From Laetmonice hystrix (taxonomy: Eukaryota): a stretch of 64,000 bases of DNA. The DNA is taken from NCBI GenBank assembly GCA_965235115.1, contig OZ249436.1, positions 15,316,001 through 15,380,000 of the forward strand, given 5' to 3'. The notes beneath the pieces are model-generated. The model saw only the letters and a program-made list of their open reading frames with translations. It made no database searches and was not told the DNA's origin. Positions within the stretch are counted from its first letter, which is position 1. Every line of letters begins with the position of its first letter. Position numbers and translations under genes: made by a program. This document shows, one piece after another, positions 1 to 39,900 of this stretch.

Positions 1-2280
1 CACCCAACCCATTCCCAAGGAAATTTGGCACCTGAAGATGGAACACTACATACACTTTGGTACTATTTGAGACCGTAAAAAGTGCAGGCAGTCTGTTCAT
101 TTGCCTCACATTGTCCCAGGTATGACATTCCTATCTTATATCCTTATTTATCTATAAATATGCTCAAATATCCAACAAACGACATGTTAAGACGAGCGGT
201 TCCATGACGCTGATTTCTTACAGTTAAAATCTCACTTCATGTCTAAGATGCATTTCTATAAGTCTTTCCCAACATGACTAGCACCTCTCGCCACTGAAAT
301 CCAGGTTTAAAGGGAAACAAAAGATCACACAGCAGTGAGAATGAGAAGTTAGACAAAAGTTGGAATTAGGGGATGAGGAATGTGTCAAGAGCTGATTTCT
401 TATGACAGATAGATCATAATTAGAGTACAATCAGCCCCATATTTAAAGGCTTAAATCTAGTGATGACCTTTTAGCTGTTTCAACATGGTTGGATATCCGC
501 TCTCATTTTAAAATCTCAACAAATAGACACTGATCTCAAGTACCGGCACTACGAATTTTGATGGGGGAAAGATTGATACATGACAAAATTAATACCTCAC
601 AAAATCAATACGCCCGCATGCCTGATCGCACAAACGGTCACCTAAGCCTTACTACGGACAGCCACCTGCCCCCAAAGTTTGGAACAAATGACTGAAACTC
701 AAGGTAGCTTTTTATGCGGTAACGCATTAAAGTAAGCAGAAGCACTTGCGGATCTTTCCTTTTACATTTTACTTACATATCACTGAAAATTGGTAGGAAA
801 CCTAAAACCATCTCAGTGCATTTTACTTATATATAGTACCCCGGTATATATTACTCGTAATTTTGCTTTCTGTGAGACCTAACACTACATCCTTGGCTTG
901 CATGAGGCTCATCTTGGCCACACAAAACATACACTCAACACACTTCATTATAAACTTCTCTGTACAGATGCATTTAGGAGCAGTTTTTGTCTGCCCAACC
1001 AGACCCAACCAGAGGGATGTGCACACGTACCAAAACGTCTCTGTGATACAAAATCGTTCAGTCAGTGTATTCATTCCAATTATTGAAGTGCTATGATATC
1101 TTTATGGTTGGTCTGGCATGGCTGTCATTAGATGGGACAGCTTTCAGACGGATACATGTTATTTTGTGAATTTCCTTTTTTTCTTTCGCTTAGGATTCAC
1201 AGGACTATGTAAAAACTTAGTTAATTATCTATACACGGATTATTTGCTAAGCCTGCAAGGTGAAAATTTCACTGAATCGGCCTGTCGTTTGCATCGAGAA
1301 GCCAAGGCTTTTATTGTATAGCTCAGCCTTACAGATTACGAAGACACCTTTGCTCATTCACAAATGTGTGGTGAAAATATGCAAATATAATGTACATATT
1401 ATGATGCAGGCTACCCTTGTACATTGACTGTATCTTATTGTGAAGCTCGCCTTTTCTCACTTTTTCGATATCACTTATATGACTTTGAAGTTTTAATTAT
1501 TGTGCACATATGTATAATACTTTGTGTTGATCATATTTTAGGCCACACCATGTATGGCTCTCATACATTCAACATTCAAAGAAATGGTTTCTATTAGCAA
1601 CAGATATTCATAACAGATTCCTGTTATCAAGTTTGGTGTAATACTAAAATAGTATTTGTACAAGTTTCCATCTTCTCCTGTCCTCCATTAACTTTCTTCA
1701 CTGACAGCACTGATCTCTACCCATGTCATGTCAAACAGCATGCAATATAACCCCATTCTTCAGTGTAGCCGTCATATATTTTACGATCAGCTTGGAGCTT
1801 TACACTTTTGTTTATGCTAGCTTAACAGGTACAACTTCTCTATCAAGGTAAGCACTCTTTTTTTGTTTGAAGTAAAATTAATTTCGGATACAATAGGATC
1901 TGTAGAATTTCCCTGAAATTGTCAGTGACTTACATGGAAATTTACTGTGTTACGTTTACCACTATTAATATTAAAACACCAGTAGCAATACTAAAAGGAT
2001 TTTTAAAGGTGTTTCTGTTTTATTTGATTTCTTTTAATTCCATCTCTAAAATTTTTCAGTTTCTGAAAACATAGCAATATACTTCTGAACCTAAATGATT
2101 ACTTTCTAAGCTGCCACATATCATACATGACATTATGCGTAGTACAGCATGGCTGAAACCCACGCCTGGGCAAATCGGCACCAGTATACCCTACACTCAT
2201 TACAGGTACATAATTTGACAGCTTATTCTGCAGGAAGCAGGACACACTGATCACTTAAAATCTAGTATGCCATTGCCGGG

Positions 2281-14200: not shown

Positions 14201-17200
14201 TGTTATGCTATATATTCTATTTCTAGTCTTTCTTACCACTATTCATAAAAAAGGCCTCAAATGCATCAACTGAGGTTGCAGATTATTCCATAAGGTCTCT
14301 TTACTGTTGGCTTTAATTACAGGGTTTAACATTTTTTAACATTTAACAAAGATTTAGATATCTTTCTGAGAACATACAGAACTGTTTATTAAATTTTATT
14401 CCATTGGCCACTTTCCTTATCAGCATTTAAAGTTAACCCCCAGCGCTTCGAAATGTTTGTCCAGTGAAGACTGGTAGTGGTACAAAAGATTTAAATTGCT
14501 CGTTTGGAGTACCCGGTAGTCTCTGACTCTTGATAAAATAACCAACATCTCGGTGCTGTACCAGTATAATAACGGTATATATCCCAGCTGGATGCTCATC
14601 GCTGACCTACAGTCACTTCGTTCAGTTGCACACAGACTTAATCTTGTTACCAGTTTTTTGTAACCTGGTATAAGTTTCATCTTCACCGACTCACTCAAAC
14701 CGTGTTGCCTGCTTGCCTTTCAACCTTTCACCATGATAATCTATCCGTAAACTCCATGTACTTTCACGTCACAGTACAGCTTCGATGACTAATTTCCCTT
14801 GGCGTGGCAAGAATGCTCAGCCTTGCTATTAGGAACATGCCCAGGCGTTCAACCCGTAGTGAAGAGCCCAGCTGGTCGTCCTACACTGCAGCCGGCAACA
14901 GGAGCTGGGGTGGGGTGACGGATAGTGATACCAGGCCAGTCACGCTAATATAGATCCTGCAGACACCCAACCTATCCCACCCTTGGGGTAAAACTACAAC
15001 CTCCCCTCCCCCTTCATGCCAGATGCGACACACATCCTACTTACTTTGGACCAGAAGACTGTATGCCAACAGCAGACACATGTCAAACTCGCTTAATGGC
15101 AAAATCTATACAATAATCCGCGTTTTTCTGCCACTGAATAGTGAAACCATAGAAGAGATGCCATTTGCGTCTATGTATCATAGCAAATGGAGGACTTTTA
15201 TCCACTCCTCCAGTGAATGATAGATCACTGTCTATCTCCATGTATGAGCCGAGATTGCGGCTTATAAAAATGCAAGGCAACCTCCTTTTTGTACACCAGG
15301 GTGTTTTTTTGTGCGGCACTGCATGATCTGCTCAAATCAGAAGCGCTTGCATCCCAGTCGGCAGCACAGGATGGACCTCACTGTACCTTCTGAATCCCGG
15401 ATGCAGGGGTTGCCTCATCCTAGTGACCCGCTACACACCCCAAGCTCGGACCTCACCGCTGCCCACCCCCTTCAATGATGGCCAAGTGAATGGGGTCAAT
15501 GCTGTATTCCGGTCCTGGGTCGGTCTGTCTACACACTGCTCTCTCCAGCCATGCCTGATGTACTGTCTATGGTAGCACACACTCTTCTCATTTCTACTAC
15601 TCCGTGCTGCATTGTTCTGGGAGCGCTTTGACACTCAACTTGGGTTGCCGTTCTCTGCCTCTCAGAACCAGCATCTCTGGAATGACTGCCTGCTTTAGCT
15701 AACGGCTTGCAACCAGACTCTGGGTCAGGCCAGGCCTCGATCACCAAGCCTTCCAGGGGGGTTACTCCTGCTCCTTCGTTTATACAGCCATAATACACAC
15801 CAGTACAAACCTCTCGAGGAACTGGCTACACCGATCTGGCTGCTGGCCTGCCGGCTGCTAGCTGGCAGTTTGTCCCTCCGGTAGAAAACAATACCAAATG
15901 ACAGTGTGCTAACAACAGTGTGCTAACTAGGCCAACTAAATGTGTAGCAACGGTTCTCCATGGATGTCTCTTCATGCATCTGACTTCACTTCAGTTCTAG
16001 ATTCCTGATATAACTTAAACTATATAATATCGGATACCATCTGTCCACCAATAACAGGGCACATAAAGAAAATACATGTATAAGCAAAGAAAAACAGGCA
16101 TGCCTAGTATATATAACTGGTCAAAGTTGTCTCCCCCTTACAACGTTTTATATTCTATGACTTGACATGCTGAGGTGTCTCCCCCTTACAACGTTTTATA
16201 TTCTATGACTTGACATGCTGAGTTGACTCCCCCTTACACAATCATTATACAATGATTACTGATGGCACTGTCATTGCTGGCTAAGTACTGTTCTAAATAT
16301 ATACTCCTCAAATACGTGTAATGTATAACTAATGTATGTGCCTGTTATTGTTTTACCGATAACAACCCATTGAAAATTTCATATCTTATTCTTATGGGGG
16401 GGGGGTAGTCTTCTTATAAGGCAAAATATATTCTACCGCAGGATTCCATATAGTTTCAGAACCAAAAAATTAGGCTCAGAAGATTGGAAGGTGAGCACTT
16501 TAATTCTATCCTAGAGAGATCCCCGAGATATGCATCACTTTAAACCATATATCATAGAAGTATGTACGATTTCCCTATATCCTTAGCAGGACAGACTGAA
16601 CCAAACAGAAACCTCTTGTGCATATTTTAGTAATTACAGACTCGCTCAGCTTCAAGATGTGTTGCTGTGTTGAATTAAATTATGTACACCAGTATACCCT
16701 GGTAATGGTGATCTAAAACACACTTATCTATAAACTACCAGACTAGCCATGAAGGCCTTACAATGTAAAGTCTTACCCCCCCCCCCCCCCAATTTTTCTC
16801 CAATACAAAGTCTAAGTTAGAAATCTAAAAGAAGTAGTTGTAAACCCCAAGCTCAAGTTTTAGTGTGATAGATGGCCTGGTACCTAGCACCATGAGACAT
16901 CTATAGGTCATGCAACACCTTTCTCAGAAACTTGAAGTTGAATGTCACTCAAGCATGTAAAGGTACTTTACATGGTCTATTAACATGGAAGACCTTATCC
17001 ATCTTTATCATGAACAACCTTTCTTGTCAGTTATATAAATGTTATCTTTTATGATACATTAAATTTTACACCGTTCAATCTGTTGACTGACTCCAGATGG
17101 CAACAGTACCAACATCAACCGATTTGTGCAGATTACATGGAAAGATTGAGGGTTTGATAAGTACTCCTGGTCAGGAAGAAAGCAAAGAAGCTGAAGAACA

Positions 17201-20200
17201 CATAGAAAAAGATGCAGACATGAAGCAGGCAGAACAGAAAAAGGAAAAGAAGGAAAAGAAGACGAGGAGATACTGATATATGCATGTTAAAGTGTCTGTT
17301 AACATCTTGCTTCTCGAGTCAGACCTCGTTTCGTGCCCAATAAAATGTCTTCTGATTCTGAAATATACCGATTAGGCTGACCATAAAAAATTGTTTCAAA
17401 GAATCTGGCTGTAACTCAAAACCTTGGGGGTTGTAACTTTTATTTTTAATGTCTTCCATTTTCCACTGACCCTGGGGAAATCTTCAGTGTGCCCCTGCCC
17501 CAAGATAACCACCATTCCGATTTTTCATGTGCAATCCCATTCAGCAGGGGGGGGGGGGGGAGGGGAATTTAAAAAAGTCCTCCGTGCCTCATTCTTTAGA
17601 ACAAACAATTTTTTAAGGCTGGCCTTACTGAATCATTTTAAAAACAAAACACAGATTAACGTGGTCTGACTGTATAAATTATGTGGATAAAGGCTCCTAG
17701 TGGAAATCAAAACCTACCTGAATAGTTCTGCTGTCCGCCAATAGGTGGTGGAGGCTGCATGCTATTGGTCATGTGGGGTCTTCCTCCTGGCAGCAGTGGC
17801 TGGGCACCCTGTGCTGATGAATAGGGGGGAGGGGTCATCCCTGGCTGAGGAGGGCCTGGGGGTCTGGCCCCCATGGGAGGTCCCGGAGGTCTCCGTCCTC
17901 CGAACTGACCCTGCAATGGTAGCCCGTGTCCTTGTCCAGGTATGGGAGGGCCAGATGTTTGGGGCATACCCATTGCTGGTGGAGGCAGTCCTGGTTGAGG
18001 GATGCTTGGTCCTGATGGCGGGCCGTTCGTTACAGGGGCTGGTTGAGGTGGACCCATGTAGTTAGGTTGACTAGAAGGCACTCCATTCATAAATGGTGGG
18101 CTACCAACTCCTATTGGGGGTCCGACACCTCCCATTGGAGGAGGTCCTTGCAATGGTGGTATTCCTGTCTTTGGTGATAAAGAGTTAACCATGCCTTGTG
18201 GAGAGCCGCCCATTGGTTGGGGAGCCCCAGACCCTATAGGCCCTGTCATGTGAGGGGGGCGGGGAGGCATGCCTCCACTCATTGTTGGTGGCTGTGGTGC
18301 CCCATGGTACTGGGGCATTTGTCCTGCCATGTTCATCCCGGGTCTTGGCTGTGGTGTTCTATAGTTCATGGCCCCCATCGATCCTGGGCCTCCCATGGGT
18401 TGTGGTGGTGGGGGCTGCTGGAAACGGTTCTGGGCCAACATTGGGGCAGCAGAATTCTGGGGCGCATTGACTTGTACAGGACGGGGAGGCAGGCCACCTT
18501 GGCCTCCCGACTTATAAGGTGATGGTGCAACAGGTAGTCCAGTCATCCCAAAACCTGAAGAACATAAACCAAAAAACACATGCCAATTTCGCATCTTTTT
18601 CATTTGTTAATTCAGTTCTCACCCATAATCCCATGACAGTAACGACACCTTTCCATTACACATTATCCCAGACTCATTGTCTGTCAAGGCAGACGACTTC
18701 AAGTTCACCAAAATACTAAACCTGATTGCCATAAATTATCGTAATTATTGGTCAACTAGATGAAACGGCTAGTGCTATGTTATTAATGTGCTGAAATTAG
18801 AATAGATCCCTAATTAAAAATAATGTATTTGTGAACTCTATCAATCAACCAAAAGTGAATTCCATACCGAGGAATAATCAAATAACATGCTTTCCTGATT
18901 TTTAACCTACAGACACCTGCAACTGAGTTGAAGTCATGAGACCATGTGTAGTATCCTGGGACTCCTGACTGAATGCAATGAACAATTTTGTCTCTTGACC
19001 TACCGGCTACCACTGACCAGGACGGCCCAATTTCTGGGGCACTAATGCCGCATCATTACTGCCAGTTTCCCTGTTGGGTTGGTGTGCACTCTAACCTCTC
19101 TTTATACTGGTATGAAACGAGTACATGTACTAGGAAACCGACTGCAATCTCTGCAACCAAGAGTTTTTGCTCTTTTGGAGGGATACAACTCTTAATAAAT
19201 ATTTGATGAGATGTTTGCTGGTAGCCTAGACACGTAGAGATGTCTGATGTTAGTAAGCGGCCTCAGCACAGTAGGCACCCAGTATCTGATGTTTTTCTTT
19301 GTTAAGTTGACACTAAAGGCACAACACAATACTCATCATGGTGTCTGTTTGATATCACTGAGGTTAGTAAATATCGAAACAGATAATTTCCACTTTACTT
19401 GGGAATCTATCTTCACAATTAAAAGCATCTATCATTTACCTGTACTTTGAGGACAGCTTACGATTAGATTCATTAATCATACTGGCATTGTCTCTGACAT
19501 TTGCATAAACTTTATCATGTCTGTCGACGTGATAAGAATAAATGATCTAAGATATGCTGAAAATCTGATCATCAAATGCACTGGGCGGTTGAACCTTGGA
19601 GTTGGACTGCACTGACCTAAACCTTTAATACTTGTCAAGAAATTATACCAAAATGTGTCACGAAGATTAATCACTCAATAATGCCTTCTGCCTCAAACAC
19701 TCAGTCTCAAAGGCTTTGCTTGGATGATACAGGTCTGTAAAACTAGAAAAGCCAGAGCCATTTCAGACCCTGCCTTGGTTATTCAAACGTTACTGCCACT
19801 AAAAGGATCAGTGTCAAAGTAATAACTTCACCTACTTGAGAATCCTTCAATTGGATTGTTTCCCACTGTCATACAAGGATGGCAAACTTTCAGCATGATT
19901 ACCGATGTATTAGATTTTCACTGATATCACTACAGATCTTTACCCTTGGGTGTGGTAGTACACAGACCGACCTTCAGTGCCCGACTGCTAGCCGTGCCAC
20001 TATAGCACACGTTTATCACGGCTACGGCTGCGACCTTCCATGACGTTGTTACAAACACACCCAACTGGCTTTGGTCCAGCAAATTATATGAATGGGGCAA
20101 CGGCAAAGGGTGTACGGTCTGTACCCCGCCTACACTTCTCTGGGATGGGTGGGGACATCAACATGAATTCATCCATGACAGGACACACCTAGGGATTCAC

Positions 20201-23200
20201 CCAAAACAATAACTCACGTGTCATTCCAAGTAACTGCAAACATGGCTTTCTCTTTAACCCCGCCTAACCAACACACCACCAGCAAACTGATACATGTATA
20301 AACTAGATGTATAAACTGGATGTACTAGGCAAACGACTTTGGATGGTGAGCCTGGATCTATCCTGAACCAGTATCCTGCGATGTTGAACGTGGAAGAAAA
20401 AAATATGGCAAGTTCGACTTCTTCTACCCTTGTGGCGTTCCCGGGAAGTTCCCCCTTTAGTAGGTGAAACCCTTGATCTTCACCACTCCTGCATCTTGTC
20501 AAAGGCCTGTGCCATTCCATTATTTTACTTGGGCTTTGCGACAATGAAATTTTTGCTGAAATGATTTTACGCTTTTGAGTTTTCTCAAACAGCAGCACCA
20601 AAGTTTTCTTATCAGTACGATTTCATTGTTACCTTTTTTGATACATGGATATAAAGATAGAGTACTTGATAGAAAACAACATTCAGGCATTTGGTCATGA
20701 GGCCCTACTACTATTATCATTTTATTGCCTGTAACAGGTAAACTGTTTCCTGTCCATACCTAAGAACTCCCCAGAAATGATGCTACTAGCTTCAATGGCA
20801 TTGGCAGTTAAAGAGCGAGACCTTCAGTGCACATCCAGGTAAACACTCAAACAGATGGTGGATTTCCGGGGCAAAATGGTGCAAGCTAGTGAATTTTCAG
20901 CTTAATTTTGTGGTACACGTATTTTTCAGTCCGGGGGGGGGGGGGGGGGGGGCCTTGCTATAAGACAGCAAGACTGTTCCTGAATGCCAGCTCTGGGTCA
21001 GAGCTGAAGGCCTGGGCTCACCCCGGCTAACCCTGGATTTTAAACCTAGCAATGGTTCGTGGCCTGATTCCATTTCCCTGCTGCAGCAGTCGGCAGTGTC
21101 TGGCCAACAACTTCGTCAATAATACCTGCCACGTCTACACCCTCACAAAGCTGACACCTGTAGTATCACGTGTCACCACAGCTCAATGCAGGCGGTCCTT
21201 AAAGATACATTGTACACTGACAGTGAAAGGCCCGTGTCTGCCTGTAGGCAATTATAACCACTGCTTTTGAGTGCAGACAAGTATGAATTTTGAAACTTTG
21301 TTTTCTACACCATATATCTAAGTAACCATGCAAAGATGCGTGAATTTCTCCCAATACCTACACAACAGTTGGAATACTGACCATCCTGTCTCTTCCAAAC
21401 ACATGTTCCAATTTATATAAATTACAGTTTGTATATTTCTGCATGCCACTCTGCTCTATGTGCTTCTCGAAAGCAGAACCTTTAAGCTCCATATCTGACA
21501 ACAGTTTCGGCCTCGCCTGACCTCCCATAACCAACACAAACCAACACGAACTCGAGACTGATCCGTCTACTTGATTAACTGGCAGGTGACCTTGTATTGA
21601 TCTGTAGTCAGGACAATGGACTAAAACAAACTCATCTCCAATGGACCTTTTCAAAACTCCTCCTGCTAGTAGAATGAGTACCGTACTTATTTTATTTTTA
21701 TTACTGCTTACAAAATTAGACAATTCCTGTTCAGCTAGTATCTCCTCCTGCAGCTCACCAGTTAAAAATAGGCACGAGTAGTGATTATTTAGGGCTTCAA
21801 ATAGAAATCTGATTTCAAACTGGCTGACAGGTATATCTCTTTTTTTCTTTTTCTCCCCCTTGTTAAATTCCATCTTCCTTCGTACCAACAGTGTACGGTG
21901 GCTACATACGTCCAATCACGTCCTGATTCAGAACCCCTGGTATTTAAGGACCATGTTTTCAGAATGAAACACAACATGCCTAGAATATATGACCTCGAAA
22001 TATAAATGGCTAGCATGCCATTATATTCTACTGACCCTACATAACGTATAGATGGATGTACGGGAGGAAAACATTAAAGGATAAGAATAGATACTGCACA
22101 TGTTCTTCATACTAATCAGGAGATCATGCAGCATGCATAGAATGTAAAGTATTCTTCAGACAGAACTTTAATACTACCACTCGCCACATGATATTCTGGG
22201 GTCCGTTCCACTAAGCCCGAAAGACGTCTTTGAAATGGTCGCTGAGCCCAAAGAGGTCTTTGCGGCGACGGGTGTTCCACTAAGCTCCTATTCTTTAACA
22301 TTGGCGCCGCAAAGACGTCTTTCCAAAGACGTCTTTGCTAAAGACGTCTTTCGTTAGTGGAACGGACCCCTGACCTGCCTGGGGCAGAGAAAAAGAACAC
22401 TGATCAATGGGTCCTCAGAATATGAATTCCCTCCTTTCACCCCTAATATATAGGCATTAAAACTTTAACAATAACTCCTCCTTACAAAATGTTACAAGTG
22501 GCATATTTTTTTGGGTGTGAGTTCTGGTTTCTATCAGTTATAAGTACATGTACCGGGTATTTATCAACTTTATATAGGTACAATTTGCTTTTCTTGATGC
22601 CACGTTCTTAAGATGAACATGCATAGCCAATGCTTCATTTAACAGCTAAAAGAAACATGTTGAGAAGCACCTATTTCCAGTTTCTCAGCAGATGAGCATG
22701 ACTCAACATGTAGGTCGCGACACCTGCATGATATCTAGAGCAACTGAACAAGTGCCCTGGACTCAGTTCAGTTGACTTTAATTTCAGTATGTCCCCAGTC
22801 ACCTTAAGAGTTTTCAGGTCAGACAACATCAATCCACAATTTTCCACAATATCTACGACATGATTTAGTCACAGTAACCTTCAGGTCACCAGGGATCGAA
22901 ATTAAGGATTTTCCACACATAACTAAGGTTACAGCAGAAGTTCGCTCGAGACCTGCAGTTCGACACTGGTCAGCTGGTAAGCCACAAGCTGTGGGACACT
23001 AGTAAAAGATGCACTAGTGCCACCTGCTGGATACCAGGCCCCTTCTCACGAGTTTCTTATCCCTCATCTTTTTTCTAAGAACCTGGAAGTCTAAAGTAGG
23101 TAACTAGTACATAAATAACTTAGTTAAAGCAGGTATGACCCCATATGCATAAACTACCGATTCCGAATTTTATGAATCCACCCCTGTAAAAATTTGCATA

Positions 23201-26200
23201 ACAAATTATTTCTCACTGATTAGTCAACTATGACCAGTTAAAAGATTGTACTACAAAGTCATTTGTTTGGGGAATATGGAGCAGCAAGTACTACATGGTT
23301 GATGTCCATGAGAAGCCTAATCTATAAGCACACGTTGTATGTGGCAATGCGATATATGGCTGATCCTTCCATGTAGCGATCTATCTGACAGAAAATAGGG
23401 GGACCGGGGTGGCGCAGTGGTTAGAGCACGGCACCTTTGATCCAAGGGTCCTAGGTTCGATCCGCGGCCACGCCAGACTTTCCTGCATAAGCAGTGCTGC
23501 CGACTGCTTTATCAAAGGCCGGCCGTGTCACGATACGTCTATGTGGAGGGGCACGTTAAAGATCCCTTGGCACCTATCGATAAGAGTAGGGGTTCGCCCT
23601 GATGCCAGGTTTCCTCCCATCATCTCATTATCACCCAATGGATTTCACCGACTGAGTTAGTTACCTTGTTCTCGCCCTGAAATAGCTGAAATACTGCTGA
23701 CTGGGCGTTAAACACCAACTAGTCACTCATCTGACAGAAAATAAGTGATCTACAGTATGTGATGTAACAACAAAAGGGCTTTTGTCAAAACATGCTGCTG
23801 ACCTGCTGTTTCAGTGATTGTCTTTTGAAAAAGCCAGGCAAGGGCAAAAAGCTTGTCTAGATTTCTTAGACACGTTTTTTCATTTATCATGAAAGCTGAA
23901 GTAAGCCTGCCTGGCTGGACACTTTCAAAGTTACAGTGATATTTGTACTTGTACAGTTGTAGATTAGGATTTTACACCCAGAAGTGATAGGCCCTGTGGT
24001 GTAAGCCTCTGGCTCATCACCACAGGGCCTCTCACCTATTGGCGCCATTCCAGCAAAAGGTTGACAGTGAATTACTTTCCGATTTTGTTCAATATAACAG
24101 ACACATAAAGGGACATTCAAAATAAGATTAGTGATAATCCCAGTCATATTTAACATTAAGTTGTGTGACCTGTACATTATGATCCATGTGTGTTTAACCT
24201 CATTCAGCTGATGTAATGAGATTATTGTATATTGCATAATGTTTTCTGTATCTGTATTACTATTATCAAATGGTCATTAATGCTTCATACTGTGTATGCA
24301 TTGCCGTAGTCAGAGGCACTACAAAATAGAGCAAACATTTAATAATGGCCCTTCCAGGCCAACATTCTTCTTTGTGTGAGCACAAACAAAAATTATGTGG
24401 GGACAACCATATTTTGGAAAAAGTAATTTTTACGGGCCAGCACACCTATCCGGCCAAGCAGCCACTGAAAGCAAAGCATGCCAGCTAGGTCTTGCAACAC
24501 CTAGGCCTAGGGTCTAGGCCTAGCCCTAAGGAACCGGAAGCAGGCCTTGCCGTTTGACGTGCGCGATCGCGCTTGCACCTCTAAGAGCCCGCAAAATTTG
24601 TGTCAGAAGTGCTGTTAATCACGCCCCTCAATTACACTGACTGAGCATTCCAAATGGGAGACTCGAGACGCATGCGCAACGGCACATTAATATCCGTGTG
24701 GCGGAAGCACTGTCGCCCCGGTCCTGTTTACTGCATATTAGCATGACGTTAGATATGACGACGAATTGCTAATCTGTGGCAGAATGCATTTAGACTATTT
24801 GTTATGAAAATTAAAGGGGCATGCTACACGTTTTGGAGGATTTCCGACAGTTATCCAACATGATCGTGTACTAGGGATCCAAGTAAATAATCCTACCACA
24901 GCATTTGGTCCTGCGACGTGTTTTCGCTGTGTATGCAGCACAAGTAGATTCTATACGACCAAACCTATAGATTTCTCCCGATAGCACATCTCCCGCCATA
25001 ATTTGCTATAGACAACCTCCCATTAACCCATGTAATTGCATACTGTGTCACATCCTGCGTGTGCACTCTCTGCATGTGCTTAGTCACGTGCTTCGCTTAG
25101 TTGTAAACAATTCAGCAGTTGCACTCGATCGGCCAGCATCAGAATACCACCTAAAACATATTTTACGAAATCGGCAGAAAAGCAGGCAAGGGAGCTTCAT
25201 AAACTTCGATTTCTCACACAAAATGAAACTGATAAGTCTGTCTTTGTTTACCAAGCAATATTAATGAAGGATCTCTTTATGAAAACAGCAAAAGTTCTTT
25301 GAAATACCAATTTTTCACGTTTCCTCATAATATGCCCCTTTAATAACTCGATAGGCTTCGCCATGTTGAATAGCTCCTAAAGTACCTAAACGCATCATAA
25401 TATTTCATAACAAGTAGCACTACGGCACCCAGCTACAGATTAGCACTTCGTCGTCCTATCTAATGTCATACTAATGTGTCTCCATAGGGGACCGATAGTG
25501 GGGCAGCTTAGCCCAAATATTCAAAAGAATTGTGCAATTTGTGATACAAGCACCAAATTTGGCACAAATGTACATTAATATGTTGCGAACATTTTTAGAT
25601 ATTGGGCCACTTGAAATTCTTTCTTTGTGTCCGCCATATTGGATTTCAAAATGGCCGCCACTTGAAATCTACATTTGCTATTATCTCTGGACATAATGCA
25701 GCTATTGACTTGATTCTGGTATCTAAATGTATGTTTTTGGGGGCAAGAAATCCAATGCTACCAATTTAAACTTGGTATTGTCAAGTATTGGCCGCCATAT
25801 TGGATTTCAAAATGGCCGCCACTTGAAATCTACATTTGCGATTATCTCTGGACATAATGCAGCTATTGACTTGATTCTGGTATCTAAATGTATGTTTTTG
25901 GGGGCAAGGAATCCAATGCTACCAATTTCAACTTGTTATTGTCAAGTATTGGCCGCCATATTGGATTTCAAAATGGCCGCCACTTGAAATCTACATTTGC
26001 GATTATCTCTGGACATAATGCAGCTATTGACTTGATTCTGGTATCTAAATGTATGTTTTTGGGGGCAAGGAATCCAATGCTACCAATTTCAACTTGGTAT
26101 TGTCAAGTATTGGCCGCCATATTGGATTTCAAAATGGCCGCCACTTGAAATCTACATTTGCGATTATCTCTGGACATAATGCAGCTATTGACTTGATTCT

Positions 26201-29200
26201 GGTGGTGGTGGTAGTTGTAGTGGTAGAAATGTGACATTGTATCATTGCAGGTTCAGAAGACAGTTCCACCATGTCCAAGAGCTTCAGACTAGCTGATGTT
26301 GAGCGAACTTCACCGTCAGCATCACCGCACCTCACCACAACTGACTGGAAGTTATGCCTCATATGTCAAGAGGACAAGACGGAGACACTGACCAAACCTG
26401 ACCAATTAAAGAGAAAAGACATTGGGAGTGGGTACAGTTCACTCGCAGAGAACTTGGTCAAATTCAGTGAACTTGGATAGCTTCCAGGATCATTTCACCT
26501 GGAAAGACTCGATGATGGTCATGGCATTGAAGCTGCGATGGTTGCACACAGTGCACAATATCATCAGACATGCAGGCCCCAGTACAACAACACCAAACTG
26601 CAGAGAGCACAAAAGAGAGCACTCAAGAAAGAAGGTGAGAGCGATGAGGAACAAGCTGCATGCAAACGCACCAGGTCACATTCACGCTCATCAAATACAG
26701 AGAAGAAGGTACCAGGAACTTGTTTCTTCTGTGAACAACCTGCTGGGGCTGACAGTCTTCGGAAAGCTGCAACATTCCAAATGGACAGACGGGTGCGTGC
26801 CTGTGCAACCCTTCTTGGTGATACAGAACTGCTGGGCCGTCTCAGTGGTGGGGACATGGTAGCGTTGGACGCCCAGTATCACCCACGGTGCTTGACAGGA
26901 CTTTACAATCGCACAAGAAAGGCCCAGTCAACAGGATCACAGGACACAAACCAAGAGCGAACAATGTCGGCAGTTGTCTTCGCTGAACTCGCCCTCTACA
27001 TTGAAGAAAGCAGACAAGATGAGGAGATGGCACCAGTATTCAGATTGGCTGATCTTGTCCAGCTCTATCAGTCCAGAATGGAACAGCTAGGAGTCCAGCT
27101 CGACACGTGTTTGACGCTGTTGAACTTCAGTATCTGGGCTGTGGCAATTGCTGCATTAGTGTCTGCCATCTGTTCCTTGATGCTGGGTCCCTCTAGGATC
27201 ATACTGACTAGGGCAAGCAGCAACGGTGGCACAGGTTCTTCTTGACATCCTTCAGGGAATCCTGTGAAGGGCTTGGCTTCTCCAAACATGTGACGGCGAA
27301 CAATCTGTGCAGCACGGGCAAGATGGACTGCATCACTATCACTGTCCAGCTCGCAGGCTTTGGCAAGAGCAGCACCGACATCTTCTTCAAATGCCATCAG
27401 GATGTCTCTCCCCTTGGTGTGTGCCCGCATGCAGCCGATACGCATGTTCTCCTCTTCTTCAAGAAGAGAGACTGGCGTTAGTCTCCACTCCTTCAAGAAC
27501 AGAGACCTTGCCCATTCCGACCAGTGGTGGGCGTAAGAAATGGAGACTTTCTTCTTGAAAAATGAGAGCAGGTGTATACATTTTGACAAGGAAACTAAAT
27601 TCTATCCTAACCCTATCCCTGACCTTAACCCTAACCCCTAACCCCTATCCCTATCCCTGACCTTAACCTTAACCCTAACCCCTGCCCAAACATTTCGTGG
27701 AAAGTTATCATGGGGGAAGAACCCATTGGCTTAACTACCTAGGTGAGATATTCACCTGCTGACCTGCTCGCTGAAGCGGAACCGAGGCGGCAAGGTGATT
27801 GGACACCTAGCTAGTCTCCATTGGAAGAAGAAAGTCTCCATTTCTTACGCCCACCACTGGGCGGAATGGAGAAGGTCTCTGTTCTTGAAGGAGTGGAGAC
27901 TAACGCCAGTCTCTCTTCTTGAAGAAGAGGAGAACATGCGTATCAGGTCCGCATGTCAGGAAACTGAGCCAGCCGTTTCTGTTTCAGTCGTGTGGAGTGG
28001 ACTCGCGTGTCGAGCTGGACTTCTTGCTGTTCCATTCTGGACTGATAGAGCTGGACAAGATCAGCCAATCTGAATACTGGTGCCATCTCCTCATCTTGTC
28101 TGCTTTCTTCAATGTAGAGGGCGAGTTCAGCGAAGACAACTGCCGACATTGTTCGCTCTTGGTTTGTGTCCTGTGATCCTGTTGACTGGGCCTTTCTTGT
28201 GCGATTGTAAAGTCCTGTCAAGCACCGTGGGTGATACTGGGCGTCCAACGCTACCATGTCCCCACCACTGAGACGGCCCAGCAGTTCTGTATCACCAAGA
28301 AGGGTTGCACAGGCACGCACCCGTCTGTCCATTTGGAATGTTGCAGCTTTCCGAAGACTGTCAGCCCCAGCAGGTTGTTCACAGAAGAAACAAGTTCCTG
28401 GTACCTTCTTCTCTGTACTCGATGAGCGTGAATGTGACCTGGTGCGTTTGCATGCAGCTTGTTCCTCATCGCTCTCACCTTCTTTCTTGAGTGCTCTCTT
28501 TTGTGCTCTCTGCAGTTTGGTGTTGTTGTACTGGAGCCTGCATGTCTGATGATATTGTGCACCGTGTGCAACCATCGCAGCTTCAATGCCATGACCATCA
28601 TCGAGTCTTTCCAGGTGAAATGATCCTGGAAGCTATCCAAGTTCACTGAATTTGACCAAGTTCTCTGCGAGTGAACTGTACCCACTCCCAATGTCTTTTC
28701 TCTTTAATTGGTCAGGTTTGGTCAGTGTCTCCGTCTTGTCCTCTTGACATATGAGGCATAACTTCCAGTCAGTTGTGGTGAGGTGCGGTGATGCTGACGG
28801 TGAAGTTCGCTCAACATCAGCTAGTCTGAAGCTCTTGGACATGGTGGAACTGTCTTCTGAACCTGCAATGATACAATGTCATATTTCTACCACTACAACT
28901 ACCACCACCACCAGAATCAAGTCAATAGCTGCATTATGTCCAGAGATAATCGCAAATGTAGATTTCAAGTGGCGGCCATTTTGAAATCCAATATGGCGGC
29001 CAATACTTGACAATACCAAGTTGAAATTGGTAGCATTGGATTCCTTGCCCAAAAAAACATACATTTAGATACCAGAATCAAGTCAATAGCTGCATTATGT
29101 CCAGAGATAATCACAAATGTAGATTTCAAGTGGCGGCCATTTTGAAATCCAATATGGCGGCCATTACTTGACAATACCAAGTTGAAATTGGTAGCATTGG

Positions 29201-31060
29201 ATTCCTTGCCCCCAAAAACATACATTTAGATACCAGAATCAAGTCAATAGCTGCATTATGTCCAGAGATAATCGCAAATGTAGATTTCAAGTGGCGGCCA
29301 TTTTGAAATCCAATATGGCAGCCAATACTTGACAATAACAAGTTGAAATTGGTAGCATTGGATTCCTTGCCCCCAAAAACATACATTTAGATACCAGAAT
29401 CAAGTCAATAGCTGCATTATGTCCAGAGATAATCGCAAATGTAGATTTCAAGTGGCGGCCATTTTGAAATCCAATATGGCGGCCAATACTTGACAATAAC
29501 AAGTTGAAATTGGTAGCATTGGATTCCTTGCCCCCAAAAACATACATTTAGATACCAGAATCAAGTCAATAGCTGCATTATGTCCAGAGATAATCGCAAA
29601 TGTAGATTTCAAGTGGCGGCCATTTTGAAATCCAATATGGCGGACATAAGGAGAGAATTTCAAGTGGCCCAATATCTGAAAATGTTCGCAACATATTAAT
29701 TTACATTTGTGCCAAATTTGGTGCTTGTATCACAAAATGCACAACAGGTTTGCTATGCCGCCCCACTACGAGGCAATAGTGCTGCCACCACTCGGGAAAG
29801 ACAGGAACTCCATTATTTCGAGTCTCCCATTGGCATTGCTCCTCAGCCATGTCTGAGGCAACCTGAAAAACGTTTGCTGTCTTCTCCTTGTCCTCCAGTC
29901 AATCATTTTCTAGATGGCACCAGAATATCTTTCTGCCAAATCTTATAAACTACCCTGGGTTTACCTGGAAATACCCAAACGTGAGAAAGGAACAATTTTC
30001 TAGGGGGATAACCAAGGGGAGTGCTCCCGTAAAGATTTCAAATAGTGCTCAAACATTGCGTAAGGAAATTTTATTTTAATGTACAACATAAAGCAAAATA
30101 TAATACCGAGTGATCGTACATTGAAAAACAATGGTACATTTCGACAGAAATTTGACTAACTCCCGGTTCATACCGACTAGGGTACATATGGGCAGCGGTT
30201 ACTGGTACAATGCAAAATATTTCCCCCTGGGAATTTTTTTTGGGGGGGGGGGGGGGGAGTAGCTGAATAATGGGGGGGGGGGGAGTCTCCCCCTTTAAGG
30301 CCTAACCCAAGCAATCTGTTTGGATTCAGCATTTATTCAAACGAAGATAATAGATTCTAAATATACACTGCCAAATTAAAAACTAGATGGGGTGTGTCAC
30401 TGGCAGTCACAGTGACTGTGTGTGATGGCTGACGTGACGAGGACTAGTATTTAATTTAGGCAGGGGTTATTCTGCCGGCGTATATAGGCCTACTGCAATA
30501 CTGGGGTGTGTTTCACAACAATCGTAACCCCGTCGTGCTTAAAAATCCCCATTGAAAACACATTGGTGTTGATACGACAAGCTTACGACAGATTGTGAAA
30601 AGCATCCCTGGATTCTTATTGGATGATGTCTGACGGCAGAATAGCAGATTACGCCAATTTACGGTATCTAATTAGTCATTTTATTTTAGTGCTTAATTAA
30701 CAACAATTTTGGGAATAAACTAACACTAACCCTAGGCCTAACCCGAACCCTAACCCATTGTTTCGTGTCGGTAATTAGTCAAACTAATTTATTTATTCTG
30801 CCGTCTGACGGCAGAATAACCAGTGCCAGTGCCTGTGGCCAGGATTAGCCTACCTGTTCCGTCGCAGCAAGACAGTAAGCCGGTCGTGCAAACCTGGGTT
30901 GAATGGGAATTTTTGACACCATCTTTGAACATTCTGTGATCCGATTCTAATATTTTAACTGTTACACAAACTTACCATGCTGCATTGGAACTCCATGAGG
31001 CATACTCTGAACGGAATTCGCTGGATTGACAGTTCGATAGTTTGTATGTGGATCCGCCAT
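2281..31060 (-). CDS. SEC24B: Protein transport protein Sec24 (SEC24A/B-type COPII coat subunit), 23 coding exons, about 1295 aa
   Basis: Exons in transcript order, all GT-AG with consistent phases, total 3888 nt: 30976-31060 ([11 protein letters not shown]...), 17718-18554 (Pro/Gly/Gln-rich), 13665-13778, 12354-12422 ([13 protein letters not shown], resembling the YDALEGG motif I recall in SEC24B), 11975-12204, 11539-11670, 10402-10691, 10083-10185 ([23 protein letters not shown]), 9599-9725 (zinc finger [12 protein letters not shown]...WKCNLC), 9240-9349, 8994-9060 ([16 protein letters not shown]), 8651-8815, 8222-8379, 5947-6048, 5599-5722, 5171-5329 ([14 protein letters not shown]), 4695-4865 ([15 protein letters not shown]), 4379-4489 (ERRIRVHT), 4010-4188, 3610-3747, 3222-3419 (gelsolin-like), 2724-2827, 2281-2395 ([29 protein letters not shown]). 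Probably the single A/B co-ortholog. The low-complexity N-terminal exons are less certain. Confidence 0.95.
2425..2468. repeat. (TTTA)n microsatellite
   Basis: Run of TTTA/TTAT units in the last SEC24 intron. Confidence 0.8.
9804..9969. mobile_element. Short MITE in a SEC24 intron
   Basis: TIRs CAGGGCTCGAA / TTCGAGCCCTG with AACAA on both flanks. Confidence 0.65.
16127..16237. repeat. 48-bp tandem duplication (about 2.3 copies)
   Basis: TGTCTCCCCCTTACAACGTTTTATATTCTATGACTTGACATGCTGAG occurs twice, plus a partial copy. Confidence 0.85.
22199..22369. mobile_element. PIF/Harbinger-like MITE
   Basis: TIRs GGGTCCGTTCCACTAA / TTAGTGGAACGGACCC with CTG duplicated on both sides, and internal palindromic AAAGACGTCTTT repeats. 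Confidence 0.8.
23398..23728 (+). mobile_element. tRNA-derived SINE with Deu/Nin-like central domain
   Basis: A box TGGCGCAGTGG and B box GGTTCGATCC. The central GCACGTTAAAGATCCCTTGGCAC...GAGTAGGGG resembles the Deu/Nin core as I recall it, and the tail is ...GGCGTTAAACACCAACT. Perfect 15-bp TSD ATCTGACAGAAAATA at 23383-23397 and 23729-23743. Confidence 0.9.
24815..25339. mobile_element. Kolobok-like non-autonomous DNA transposon
   Basis: TTAA|AGGGGCAT...ATGCCCCT|TTAA: short TIRs starting with purines, plus a TTAA target duplication. Confidence 0.6.
25631..26203 (+). repeat. 161-bp subterminal tandem repeat, about 3.6 copies
   Basis: The unit CCGCCATATTGGATTTCAAAATGGCCGCCACTTGAAATC... recurs every 161 bp (ORF starts 25727, 25888, 26049). 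Confidence 0.95.
26271..27107 (+). pseudogene. Inverted duplicate of the truncated transposase
   Basis: Near-identical reverse complement of 28006-28842, with the same premature stop (26478-26480) and a few substitutions (HSAQ/HGAQ, CRPQ/CRLQ, SNT/SST, QLGV/QQEV). Confidence 0.85.
27108..28842 (-). pseudogene. Truncated Academ-like transposase (N-terminal part), primary copy
   Basis: ATG at 28842 ([11 protein letters not shown]...), premature TAG at 28633-28635, same frame continues ([12 protein letters not shown]...LAQFPDMR). It is interrupted by a MITE at 27432-27948, resumes ([17 protein letters not shown]...[11 protein letters not shown]) and breaks off at about 27108. Confidence 0.8.
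27432..27948. mobile_element. Non-autonomous TIR element (MITE) nested in the transposase, with a telomere-like internal tract
   Basis: 120-bp inverted repeats at 27437-27556 and 27825-27944. CCGCATG is duplicated at 27425-27431 and 27949-27955. Removing the element restores the transposase frame (QFPDMRAHTKG). A degenerate (CCCTAA)n tract lies at 27606-27682. Confidence 0.85.
28910..29643 (-). repeat. 161-bp subterminal tandem repeat, about 4.6 copies, inverted relative to 25631-26203
   Basis: Same unit on the minus strand (ORF starts 29064, 29225, 29386, 29547). Confidence 0.95.
30465..30821. mobile_element. Small TIR element with palindromic ends and a CCCTAA-like tract, left end split by an insertion
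   Basis: GGTTATTCTGCCG (30465) ... TCTGACGGCAGAATAG (about 30629), and right end TTATTCTGCCGTC-T-GACGGCAGAATAACC (30793-30821). CTAACACTAACCCTAGGCCTAACCCGAACCCTAACCC lies at 30720-30756. Confidence 0.6.
30504..30607. mobile_element. Short PIF/Harbinger-like MITE
   Basis: CTG|GGGTGTGTTTCACAA...TTGTGAAAAGCATCC|CTG: imperfect TIRs with a CTG duplication. Confidence 0.55.
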
Positions 31061-31361
31061 CTTGAAGTTGCGCTGCGATGTCTCTAAATAGGAAAGGTTC
31101 AGACCTTCCTAGTACTTTCCCCAACGTGCTACTAGTTCACCCCTTCCTTGGAAAATTAAATTTATATATCTGCCAACAGAAAATTTAAAAAGCGATAATC
31201 TCCCGTCTATTCATCGCATAATTTGACATCTTTAAAGTTACCGTTTACCGCAGATGTTCGCACAGTTTGATCCGGAAGTGGACTCTTATCACACATGCGC
31301 AATTTCTATCAACGTGGCATTCCCGTGATTCAAAGATTTCCTCCCACACGCTAGAGGGCGC
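31054..31361 (-). promoter_or_regulatory. SEC24 proximal promoter motifs (YY1-, ETS-, CREB3L/XBP1- and CTCF-like)
   Basis: AAGATGGCGG over the ATG (plus CCGCCATCTT, 31054-31063), CCGGAAGTG at 31272-31280, ACGTGGCA at about 31312, CACGCTAGAGGGCGC at 31347-31361. These are motif matches only. Confidence 0.45.
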
Positions 31362-36900: not shown

Positions 36901-39900
36901 GTCCTACTGACAGGAATTGGCATAGCTTTTGCATTTGCATTTGTGGTGCCATACTTTACTGGAAATGGGCAAAGGTCACCAGTTCACCATCATCGCACAG
37001 CTCCCTGGACACACATACTGGCTGATCTAGGTGAGACCTGAAATTGAGACTGTGTGTACTAGTAGGCCGAACAGGTATAAGCACCATACAAGGATTTTAC
37101 GCATGTCACGGTGGCAATTTGTAGTCATTCCTTGTTTTTACATTCCTTTTGTACCCTTTATAGGAAGCATAAGTTTCAGTTCGGTTCCGTTTGTTTGGGC
37201 TTGATGGGCCCATTGAAAACAGTCCTTTCAACTTCAAATCATTATAACTGCATGTTTTTGATGTCCTATTAATCAGACTTCATCAGAACCAATATATGTC
37301 TTATCATAAATAAGAACATTTTTAAAAAAAAAGCTGATGTCTGGAGAGACATTTGTCCACCCTATGTTAAATGAGGAATTGTGACGTTACAAAGCTGCAT
37401 GTCGCCAGCGATTCTATTTTGGCCACATTAGCAGTTCCTTATAGATCAAACATAGTGAGATGCAAGACTCCTTAGCAAGATAGATTAAGAGTTTCATAGA
37501 CAAGGTCATTACAAATGACGATGTAATGACGGTCCATTTTTCATGTGGCAGGTACGGAGTCCAGTGTGCGTTTAGCAGATGTTGATGGTGATGGCAAGAA
37601 AGATGTTCTTTTTGGTACAATGAAAGAGTTTGGATTTCGGGTCACCACAGCAGATATGATGCAGAACTTGTGTGAACAAAGAGGTATGTCAAGTAACTCT
37701 TTAGATTTAAATCATTTCTATGGGGCATTCAAAGATCTATACAGACAAATTCTGAGAGTGAATGTGGGTCTATAAAGTAAGATCAAATTATAAAATTGAT
37801 GTAGGTACATGGACTCATGGATGCATGCAAAACACTTTAAAATAAGAAAAACAATTTAATGATTTATAAAGAAGCATTAATGTAGTCATTTATTATGATT
37901 TCATTGCAGATTTACCATTCCCATGTGTTGGTATGGTTACTGCCTTGCGTGGAACAGATGGTACTGAGCTTTGGCGTGTTGAAACCTATTCAGGGGTCAC
38001 TGACCTTAAATGTGATGAAATAGATGTAAATAACGATGGTTACAATGACTGCATTGCAACAGGGCGCATGGGAACACTCTTAGCTATCAATATTAGCAAT
38101 GGTAAGTAGAAACCTAAAAGCCTAACCAGGAATAGGATGGGCATGAGCAATCTTTAGTTTGAAAGAAGACTTTGTTACATGAATCTGAGACCTCATAAGT
38201 TGTTTTTAAAATGTTTTAGTGGTTCAGCAAAATAAAATATAGGAGGCAGGCTGACTCGATGTTTAAGAAACTGATTGTGTGGAGCCTTGTGACAGTTATT
38301 ATGATTATGGCCCTAAACGTACAAACCAGATTATTAGGTAAATATTAAGTTCCCTTTAGATACATAAGGTGTGTTTTTTTTTATCATCCTACAGGTTCCA
38401 TTCTATGGCATGGAGACGAAAGTGTCCTTAACAGGGCATTCAATGTTTATAACCCAGTCATCTTACCTGATCTTGATCTTGATGGAACAGCGGATATTCT
38501 TGTGGCCCATGGAGGAGATGATGCATTTCCACATGCTGTAATTATATTCTTTTCAATAGTCTTTAATGTTAAAGCATTCCAAGTCTTTTAGGCACAGCAG
38601 AATATGGAACCTTATAAAAATCTTTATTAAATACAAGTTGTTGCTTTTCAAACCTTAGTCTTTGGAACTTTTAGTTTTAGACAGGTTTTTCTTAAATTCT
38701 CTTTTTTAATTTTTTTTTGATCATATTGGTTGTGAGATCTTAATTTCTACAGTCTTATCTTATGGACAAATTTACTGAAATTTTGTTTTTTATGTCATAG
38801 AAATATTCTTAAATGAAGATGGGCAATTCTGGCATTGTCGCAATATGATTTGCCCCCTATTTTTGTTACATGATGTTTACCACACCATATTCTTTATTAT
38901 CAGTTATGACCATTTACTCTGAGGTAAATATTCCATCAACTTTGGTGGTGGCTACTAAAGTAAGGCATGGCATATTAGAAGCTTGCTCCCAAGTTTATTC
39001 AAAGAGTGAAAGACTGGATAAGTCCTGTTTAATTAACCTGCTTTGTAAAAGAAAATCTGCTTGCACATAATGTTTCTGCATGATACTAATATCTCATAAC
39101 TATGAAATGCTACCCTATTTAGAGATAGATTACTGGAGATCCAGAGCTTATTGTAGGAACCATCTATTGGGACCATTGGTGTATTATTAATCTTACCCAA
39201 GTTTTGATGACCAGTATTATTGTAGCTGTGGCACAAGCTGCAAGAAAATTTGAGGGGGAAAAGTTGCCACTTGTATTATTTCAAGACTGTTAACTGTTCA
39301 AGCTTATTGGTAAAATTATGAATTAGTACCTGCTGTGCTGACTGTTATTTGAAGATTCTAGACAATTATAGCTGTAGAGAAAGACTATTACTTGAGTACA
39401 CCCATGCGATCTGTTTCATCATGTCAACATCTGTCGATGGAGATAATTTCAGTTGTTAATAAACATTGTACTTTCTGATTTACTTGCGGTGCAGAAGTTG
39501 GTTGCACATAAGCTTGAGGTAAACCACAGGACCTTCCCTTGTAGAGTATTCATTAGCCTGCATGCTGTTTATCTTGTCCTAATGTCACATTTGAAATCCT
39601 AGAACTATTTCACGCTAGGGATCTTTACTAGTGCTGAAACGTCATAGAGTACACAAACTCTGCTTTTACTAATTTAGTATAAGTGTCCATGAACATAAGC
39701 ATACTTTGCCTATATTGAGTACCTATATAAATATATGTTCATTCATGTTAACAAATTCTTTTTGAGATTTCTGAATCTTTATGATAAGTTTTGTGTGTGT
39801 GAAAGTAACTTTAACATTAAAATATTGCATGCAGGTTATTGTGACTTTGATGGTAATGTTATGTCTCCTGTTACACTGTAGTCGTGATTGATGTGTCTAT

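Follow-up and report, generated by a model that had tools for sequence, protein, structure and literature searches.

A fold-back element in the first intron of a SEC24 gene

The window analyzed here is a stretch of 64,000 nt from the Laetmonice hystrix genome (contig OZ249436.1, forward-strand positions 15,316,001 to 15,380,000; G000:C1:15316001-15380000 in an assembly of 627 Mb and 35 contigs), and it carries a 4,273-bp fold-back transposable element at 25496-29768, inside intron 1 of a SEC24 gene. An earlier note, drawn from the letters of the window, had described a fold-back element at this position with TAG and CTA ends and an intact CGA target duplication, and all of these features were recovered by repeat search and from the sequence itself. 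The element has TAGTGGGGC termini (reading TAGTGGGGC...GCCCCACTA from end to end), is bordered by CGA on both sides, and differs between its two ends in the outermost 24-34 nt.

A repeat search of the window paired 25609-27107 with 28006-29504 as inverted arms of 1,499 nt, 98% complementary and separated by 898 nt, with a second pairing register between 25530-26203 and 29071-29744. The left part is the reverse complement of the right part, as had been claimed, with 27 mismatches in 1,499 nt by direct count. In the non-tandem inner stem (26204-27107, 904 nt) there are 7 mismatches, the longest perfect runs are 392 and 318 nt, and the seven arm-specific differences (26231, 26550, 26578, 26693, 26695, 27088 and 27091) can tell the arms apart. 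Tandem 161-bp units lie outside this stem, 3.6 on the left (25631-26203) and 4.6 on the right (28910-29643), which accounts for the one extra unit and, with the unlike outer ends, for the asymmetry already noticed. Each arm contains 836 nt of transposase coding sequence (about 840 bp had been estimated), preceded by a 5' leader, and in both arms the leader of the parent element is directed inward. The arm open reading frame (ORF) begins MSKSF, with its ATG at 26272 on the plus strand in the left arm and at 28841 on the minus strand in the right arm, and is interrupted by an in-frame TAG in both (26478-26480 and 28633-28635). The catalytic part of the transposase is missing from the element, also as described.

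The loop of about 900 nt proposed between the arms was correct in length (898 nt) but is no neutral spacer, as it consists of 374 further nt of transposase coding sequence interrupted by a 517-bp miniature inverted-repeat transposable element (MITE). The right-arm ORF continues on the minus strand for ~20 codons beyond the arm end (27949-28005), meets the MITE, and resumes for ~130 codons (27108-27424) up to FNSVKH. At 27107/27108 this sense codon ~431 meets antisense codon ~279 (QLDT) with a microhomology of at most 1 nt. Pfam searches with five arm and centre ORFs gave chance-level matches only (E 0.17-0.41), none passing the cut-off. The parts of the element, with the evidence for each, are as follows.

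25493-25495, unstranded: target-site duplication CGA, left copy; a single CGA stands there in an uninterrupted paralog of the flanking repeat (contig of read set X1 joining 25495 to 29806)
25496-29768, unstranded: whole non-autonomous, probably Academ-like fold-back, 4,273 bp; 98.99-99.65% identity to four complete copies on contigs C2, C6, C11 and C12
25496-25529, plus: left-type terminus, TAGTGGGGC and 25 nt unlike the other end; adjoins the gene 3' end in the parent (loci L016 and L046)
25631-26203, plus: subterminal 161-bp array, 3.6 units; 98% matches
26204-27107, plus: unique part of the left arm, 5' leader (26204-26271) and codons 1 to ~279; the matching right-arm frame is 81% identical to protein P0032 (1,492 aa)
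27107-27108, unstranded: inversion junction, antisense codon ~279 to sense codon ~431; its 30-nt word occurs 5 times in the genome, and contigs of sets X6 and X24 continue past 27107
27108-27424, minus: single-copy centre, codons ~300-431; ORF 27068-27601 (minus)
27425-27948, unstranded: nested MITE, 517 bp and one copy of a 7-bp duplication (CATGCGG on the minus strand); skipped precisely in X6 and X24 contigs
27949-28005, minus: single-copy centre, codons ~280-299; ORF continuation and proteins of relatives
28006-28909, minus: unique part of the right arm, codons 1 to ~279 (ATG 28841-28839) and 5' leader; repeat search, ORFs and mismatch count
28910-29643, minus: subterminal 161-bp array, 4.6 units; tandem repeat search
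29745-29768, minus: right-type terminus; adjoins the gene 5' end in the parent
29769-29771, unstranded: target-site duplication CGA, right copy; read from the sequence

The host gene was identified from 148 ORFs, each 72 aa or longer, located elsewhere than in the element, among which Pfam placed Sec23/24 gelsolin, helical, beta-sandwich and trunk domains at 3198-8401 on the minus strand. The best PDB matches of the helical-domain ORF were Sec24B and Sec24A (E=2e-12). Two upstream exons were placed by their splice signals and reading frame.

30976-31256, minus: SEC24 exon 1, leader, ATG at 31060-31058 and 85 coding nt; G/GTAAGT donor with its GT at 30975-30974
17710-18554, minus: SEC24 exon 2, Pro/Gln-rich, in frame with exon 1, 3' limit unmapped; polypyrimidine tract and acceptor AG at 18556-18555

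The exon 1 donor and exon 2 acceptor enclose an intron 1 of 12,421 nt (18555-30975), of which the element takes up 4,273 nt, and the proposed position within SEC24 intron 1 thus stands. Contigs of set X4, which come from the same sample as X1 (the best-matching DNA set) and are of unknown kind, cover 31053-31256 and 17925-18388 with no differences; they include the SEC24 exon regions and not the unique stem, and were not used as evidence of expression, nor was the putative RNA set X24. Among the sequencing runs listed, none was catalogued as RNA. At the SEC24 coding start (31061-31070) lies CAAGATGGCGG, which resembles YY1-type sites, as do GCCGCCATATTGG and AAAATGGCCGCC, opposite in orientation, which recur in every 161-bp unit (e.g., 25631-25670).

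Five complete copies share one junction and one nested MITE

Genome-wide similarity searches of the assembly, which give lower bounds only, were used to look for further copies. With a 908-nt stem query, 11 matches were obtained, namely ten arms (two inverted arms on each of contigs C1, C2, C6, C11 and C12, the window lying on C1) and one partial match on C8. Each copy contains a 30-nt word spanning the inversion junction once, for a genome total of exactly five against none in the control; the same word had no matches in either the genome-contig or the metagenome-contig collection. The inverted structure is far beyond chance and recurs at four other loci. Complete copies are 4,273-4,588 bp long and share 98.89-99.87% pairwise identity; most of their differences lie in how many 161-bp units they carry and in the loss of 221 bp from the MITE of the C12 copy.

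The two end types, unlike each other, recur in every one of the five complete copies. Perfect 3-bp duplications flank four of them (CGA, AAA, TAC and CAA), and the C11 copy lies between AAA and TAA, one base different, while the 1-kb flanks of the five loci show no similarity across loci. Both termini are kept, a working transposase is absent and several sites carry duplications of their own, which is what distinguishes a non-autonomous deletion derivative. Since the junction is identical, the end types are shared and the flanks are unrelated, the fold-back must have arisen once and transposed afterwards, and because the nested MITE is common to the four other copies as well, its insertion preceded the spread. 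The fold-back arose once, acquired the MITE and then transposed recently as a unit. Independent formation of five fold-backs was considered and is ruled out by the identical junction and the identical nested MITE.

Long-read libraries can yield fold-back chimeras, and a chimeric palindromic read collapsed into the assembly could in principle produce a structure of this kind. Such an artefact would not, however, be expected at five loci on five contigs, each with its own flanks and target duplications, nor would it explain arm-specific differences that are common to copies or two end types that are always asymmetric. The region is also covered by contigs of the independent read set X1. We give an artefact practically no probability, and regard it as already effectively refuted.

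Two copies have peculiarities of their own. The C6 copy (L014) sits in a short tandem repeat, its left and right flanks being 93-97% alike, and the C12 copy (L015/L021) has no stop codon in either arm and a MITE shortened by 221 bp. With no stops and the shortened MITE, a 485-aa frame stands open in the C12 copy, starting in the arm, crossing what is left of the MITE and reaching the junction, probably by chance.

Relics and relatives outline the parent element

The earlier note had proposed a genome-wide look for full-length members of the family, and had made the existence of homologues elsewhere a condition of the silencing role. Homologues exist, in the form of the four other complete fold-backs, a relic and fragments, but a full-length copy did not appear: no intact parent was found in the assembly by this lower-bound search, only a decayed, 5'-truncated relic and fragments. 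The relic (L016, on C8) begins with a left-type end and 161-bp units, continues with the 3' end of the gene and extends back to a truncation within the arm-homologous region; its gene is decayed, with many broken frames and an internal deletion. At L046 (C11:29395168-29398312), a left-type end adjoins the last ~250 codons (last 760 nt) of the gene. Elsewhere in the assembly, the 3.26-kb catalytic region of the relic was matched only by this 760-nt piece on C11 and by 45-nt overlaps with the five fold-backs.

Other organisms provided the uninterrupted gene. Contigs of X6 (organism B) and X24 (organism M) share 96.6-98.7% identity with the element (97.3% for X24 record 13), lack the MITE, and run as identical sequence past 27107 into the rest of the gene. 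Proteins P0062, P0063 and P0032 likewise read FNSVK[HR]KRTRGTTSST across the junction point (KHKRTRGTTSST in P0062 and P0032). P0032, of 1,492 aa, is 81% identical over the arm ORF and is also matched by the C-terminal domain of the paralog L038 (41% identity, 99% coverage). The closest further relative of the centre ORF shares only 54% identity.

These relatives bear on whether the fold-back might be the normal architecture of the family, its terminal inverted repeats being very long and extending into coding sequence. At both of its ends, the parent does carry long terminal repeats made of 161-bp units. What lies next to the left-type end in the C8 relic and at L046 is, however, the 3' end of the gene and not an inverted 5' part, and the X6 and X24 contigs and the three proteins, which read straight across the junction point, contradict a normal fold-back architecture, which we consider extremely unlikely. 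As reconstructed from relics and relatives, the parent would have consisted of a right-type end, a 161-bp array, a 5' leader, a gene of ~1,500 codons, an inverted 161-bp array and a left-type end. Judging by the relics and the 1,492-aa relative, its length may have been ~6 kb.

Further fragments and relatives were observed. A right-type end with about 4 units and then a break lies at L053 (C1:26268015-26271125), and a 183-nt left-type end at L047 (C5:35459181-35462325). Relatives of the family occur across many aquatic animals, and about a dozen other organisms share 5-7% of words with the element. At a likeness of at least 92%, X6 gave no cover on 17000-20334, which holds SEC24 exon 2 and neighbouring intron, and X24 none on 17667-20334. 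The identity of ~97-99% in other organisms could reflect horizontal transfer or low-coverage data from relatives. Four proteins (P0001, P0002, P0004 and P0009), labelled as hypothetical proteins of a Sedimenticola metagenome-assembled genome and located on contigs of 3.7-7.9 kb, are 49-87% identical to the transposase domain; they are probably host-animal DNA binned into a bacterial genome.

Features of the family point to AcademX

Full-length paralogs of up to 1,561 aa (L038) fall into three parts, namely a Cys-rich N-terminal region (the one that the fold-back stem carries in duplicate), a conserved core with the motifs DNIDHN, DQPLYA and GGLHIEMA shared among relatives, and a C-terminal domain ending in a CXC cluster. 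None of three long relatives had a Pfam match at E<=0.1, and a PDB sequence-profile search with four full-length relatives found nothing below E 0.17. Modelling of the C-terminal 437 aa of L038 (42-row alignment) gave a pLDDT (per-residue confidence) of 89.3 and a pTM (predicted template-modelling score) of 0.85, and Foldseek with this model returned 38 PDB matches at E<=0.001 (XRN1/XRN2/Rat1, EXO1, FEN-1, T5 flap endonuclease and Rad2), although the TM scores were modest (0.3-0.5). Of these searches, the comparison of folds was the informative one. The nuclease fold was thus modelled on a full-length paralog from another Academ-like family, and the element at 25496-29768 is without that region.

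Passages of published accounts describe AcademX elements as having 3-4 bp duplications and an encoded nuclease (PMC10045372), Academ as lacking Pfam similarity (PMC5751038), and Academ elements as long, with a mean of about 5.6 kb, and abundant in bivalves (PMC10294476). The 3-4 bp duplications of AcademX have their counterpart in the perfect 3-bp duplications of four of the five copies, the fifth being one base off, and its nuclease in the FEN/XPG/XRN-like C-terminal fold modelled on L038, over 99% of which P0032 aligns. The family here is thus like the AcademX lineage in its 3-bp duplications, in the FEN/XPG-like fold of its full-length relatives and in having no Pfam match, whereas the element itself is unlike it, being a non-coding fold-back without core and nuclease. 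The Academ label given in the earlier note gains from the duplication length and the nuclease fold, and an AcademX-type, Academ-like family is probable, not proven, with the assignment set by features and published descriptions.

Other Academ-like families were seen in the same genome. L038 (G000:C8:4481000-4490999, 1714-6396 on the minus strand) holds an uninterrupted 1,561-aa ORF, and others, among them L037, L039 and L040, have ORFs of 1,239 aa, 950 and 652 aa, and 716 and 613 aa. Some of these families may still be active.

A single aberrant repair event as the probable origin

In the left arm, the left-type (3'-side) terminus with its array is followed by the 5' leader, and array and leader meet at the same point as they do in the right arm. 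This shared boundary places the switch from the 3'-end context to the inverted 5'-end context inside the 161-bp arrays. Such an anatomy would be the expected product of interrupted synthesis-dependent gap repair with a template switch between terminal arrays and subsequent end joining. We propose one aberrant repair event, most likely interrupted gap repair following excision, in which a strand copied from the 3' end would have switched template within the inverted 161-bp arrays and then copied the 5' leader and codons 1-279 backwards. This strand would have been joined to another, copied from the 5' end up to codon ~431, through a microhomology of no more than 1 nt, and the element would have lost its catalytic core and nuclease domain while retaining both transposon ends. 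The later steps are shown by the copies themselves. The MITE inserted in the centre before the spread, and transposase acting in trans then carried the hairpin-shaped element, very recently, to five or more sites, among them a high-copy repeat inside intron 1 of the SEC24A/B-like gene. Gene conversion between the arms keeps them alike.

Overall, we consider it highly probable that the element is a non-autonomous fold-back derivative of an Academ-like (AcademX-type) cut-and-paste transposon, with one origin and later mobilisation in trans to at least five sites. Several points weigh against this reading or parts of it. The template switch is derived from the anatomy alone, and break-induced fold-back or recombination of two copies could yield the same product. 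No transposase source for the recent moves was found in the assembly, where the catalytic region appears only in the decayed C8 relic and the 760-nt fragment. Superfamily membership was set from published descriptions and is probable only. Finally, SEC24 exon 1 was placed by splice signals, reading frame and one X4 contig of unknown kind. As an object, the element is clear but ordinary, a rearranged non-autonomous DNA transposon.

Patchy concerted evolution of the arms

An alignment of the ten arms was used to compare changes within and between copies. Copy-specific changes occur in both arms at columns 7 and 114 (in C6), 210 (in C6 and C12) and 229 (in C12). The C1, C11 and C2 copies carry the TAG stop (column 281) in each of their arms, the C6 copy carries it in one arm, and the C12 copy lacks it altogether. 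Arm-specific differences at columns 34, 381, 891 and 894 are shared between copies, so that one arm cannot have been rebuilt from the other every time the element transposed. The paired copy-specific changes, in turn, point to gene conversion between the arms that is patchy in extent, as the alignment indicates.

Potential for hairpin RNA and its bearing on silencing

Read through from SEC24, the pre-mRNA would contain the sense 5' part of the transposase, the centre and then the antisense part, and could fold into roughly 0.9-1.5 kb of near-perfect double-stranded RNA (dsRNA). The position in intron 1 makes read-through from the host promoter plausible, and the element might also be transcribed convergently from its own two inward leaders. 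The dsRNA potential would be a by-product of the fold-back structure, and any effect of it is purely hypothetical.

The earlier note had likened the element to Mu killer (Muk) of maize, described in the relevant passages of PMC3440606 as a partial inverted duplication of a transposase gene and adjoining terminal region. The comparison holds for architecture, as the element at 25496-29768 is an inverted duplication of the transposase 5' part and terminal region, but not for a unique killer locus, since it is one of five transposed copies. Both are placed where a host promoter can read through (same passages). Muk is a single locus with genetic proof of a hairpin transcript, small interfering RNAs (siRNAs) and heritable silencing, and lies downstream of a flanking gene, whereas the fold-back here is intronic, keeps both transposon ends, has itself transposed to at least five sites, and belongs to an animal Academ-like family rather than to plant Mutator. 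In structure, a closer animal analogue of Mu killer could hardly be wished for, but its function is hypothetical.

As a trigger of the Mu killer type, read-through from SEC24 or transcription from the duplicated 5' regions of the element would yield hairpin RNA, which would be processed into siRNAs or PIWI-interacting RNAs and silence intact members of the family in trans. The 904-nt unique stem, with its 7 mismatches and perfect runs of 392 and 318 nt, and the position within an intron of a housekeeping-type gene would suit such a role, as would the result that the lower-bound search found no intact autonomous copy in the assembly. Uninterrupted gene sequence is present in X6 and X24 of organisms B and M. 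On the other side, a working transposase must have been present alongside hairpin copies during the recent spread to five sites (98.9-99.9% identity), that is, after the hairpin form existed, which speaks against a killer that is both fast and potent. DNA transposon families moreover usually lose their autonomous copies, with no killer required, and long intronic inverted repeats are common in animals and mostly without known effect. A trigger of this kind is, on balance, unlikely.

An equally improbable variant by our estimate is a self-spreading killer, in which the transposase of the family would copy a hairpin-RNA generator to new transcribed sites and expressed copies would shut down the parent. 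If true, it would explain five young hairpin copies without an intact parent in the genome, and would amount to a mobile animal counterpart of Mu killer born within an Academ family. First recognition and silencing of new transposon families is well understood in few cases, maize Mu killer being the classic natural one, and a mobile hairpin derivative in a constitutively transcribed intron offers a concrete, testable candidate trigger in an invertebrate animal. Even if functionless, the family documents that long repeat-bearing ends can promote fold-back rearrangement, and that a fold-back product is still able to transpose, its arms evolving in concert.

Intronic dsRNA edited by ADAR or cut by Dicer could also alter the splicing of SEC24 intron 1, nuclear retention or transcript level. 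Of the 12,421 nt of the intron, 4,273 belong to the element, which would fold as it is transcribed. However, the insertion is very young (0.35% from its closest copies), intron 1 was already filled with repeats and there is no sign of conservation, and an effect on the host gene is accordingly given a still lower probability than silencing, at a level we would call very unlikely.

Other known fold-back and hairpin systems resemble the non-autonomous Academ-like derivative proposed here in part. Drosophila FB-type foldback elements have long terminal inverted repeats made of tandem subrepeats, and the whole element forms a hairpin. The present element is like them in both respects and unlike them in that its tandem arrays are confined to the outermost 0.6-0.75 kb, with 0.9 kb of duplicated transposase leader and coding sequence on the inner side of each arm, and in that its relatives are Academ-like. 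Animal hairpin RNA and inverted-repeat endogenous siRNA loci (in Drosophila, mouse oocytes and the read-through of C. elegans Tc1) indicate that transcribed inverted repeats can give long dsRNA. In maize, inverted duplications of Ac/Ds arising by alternative transposition start siRNA silencing, according to a preprint (bioRxiv 10.1101/2020.01.07.897926), and are similar to our case in that transposon sequence was inverted and duplicated by aberrant transposition or repair. The Ac/Ds case, which concerns plant hAT elements and involves chromosomal rearrangement, has demonstrated siRNAs and silencing, and the animal hairpin loci are defined by small-RNA data; in contrast to these and to Muk, the compact mobile element studied here is known from its DNA structure alone.

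The nested MITE, the flanking repeat and neighbouring genes

The insert at 27425-27948 is an unrelated high-copy MITE, short and non-coding, with inverted ends and a 7-bp duplication. Its terminal inverted repeats are 120 bp long (27437-27556 and 27825-27944) and enclose CCCTAA-like repeats at 27606-27683. Precisely 27425-27948 is absent from the X6 and X24 contigs, with an ambiguity of 7 nt at the joint. A genome search with the MITE yielded 1,617 first-look candidates, 40 of which were scored and proved near-full-length at 93-98%. Many of the candidates lie on contig C19. The degenerate CCCTAA repeats of the MITE centre are telomere-like, and a similar tract is present at 30719-30756.

The element as a whole lies in a very high-copy repeat (23000-25495 and 29769-31000), where the summed X1 contig depth reaches 1e4-4e5, compared with about 30-45 in unique parts. 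A paralogous copy of this flanking repeat without the element has a single CGA, as seen in an X1 contig. This contig, joining 25495 to 29806, was considered as an empty-site allele and rejected, since with a 27-nt side and 26 unlike letters it is more probably another copy of the flanking repeat.

Elsewhere in the window, Pfam identified a FAM234-like beta-propeller with an FG-GAP repeat at 37870-41164 (plus strand), CLUAP1 at 54876-55548 (plus strand) and the C-terminus of a serine hydroxymethyltransferase at 62513-62875 (minus strand). A weak zf-RVT match was located at 52769-53266.

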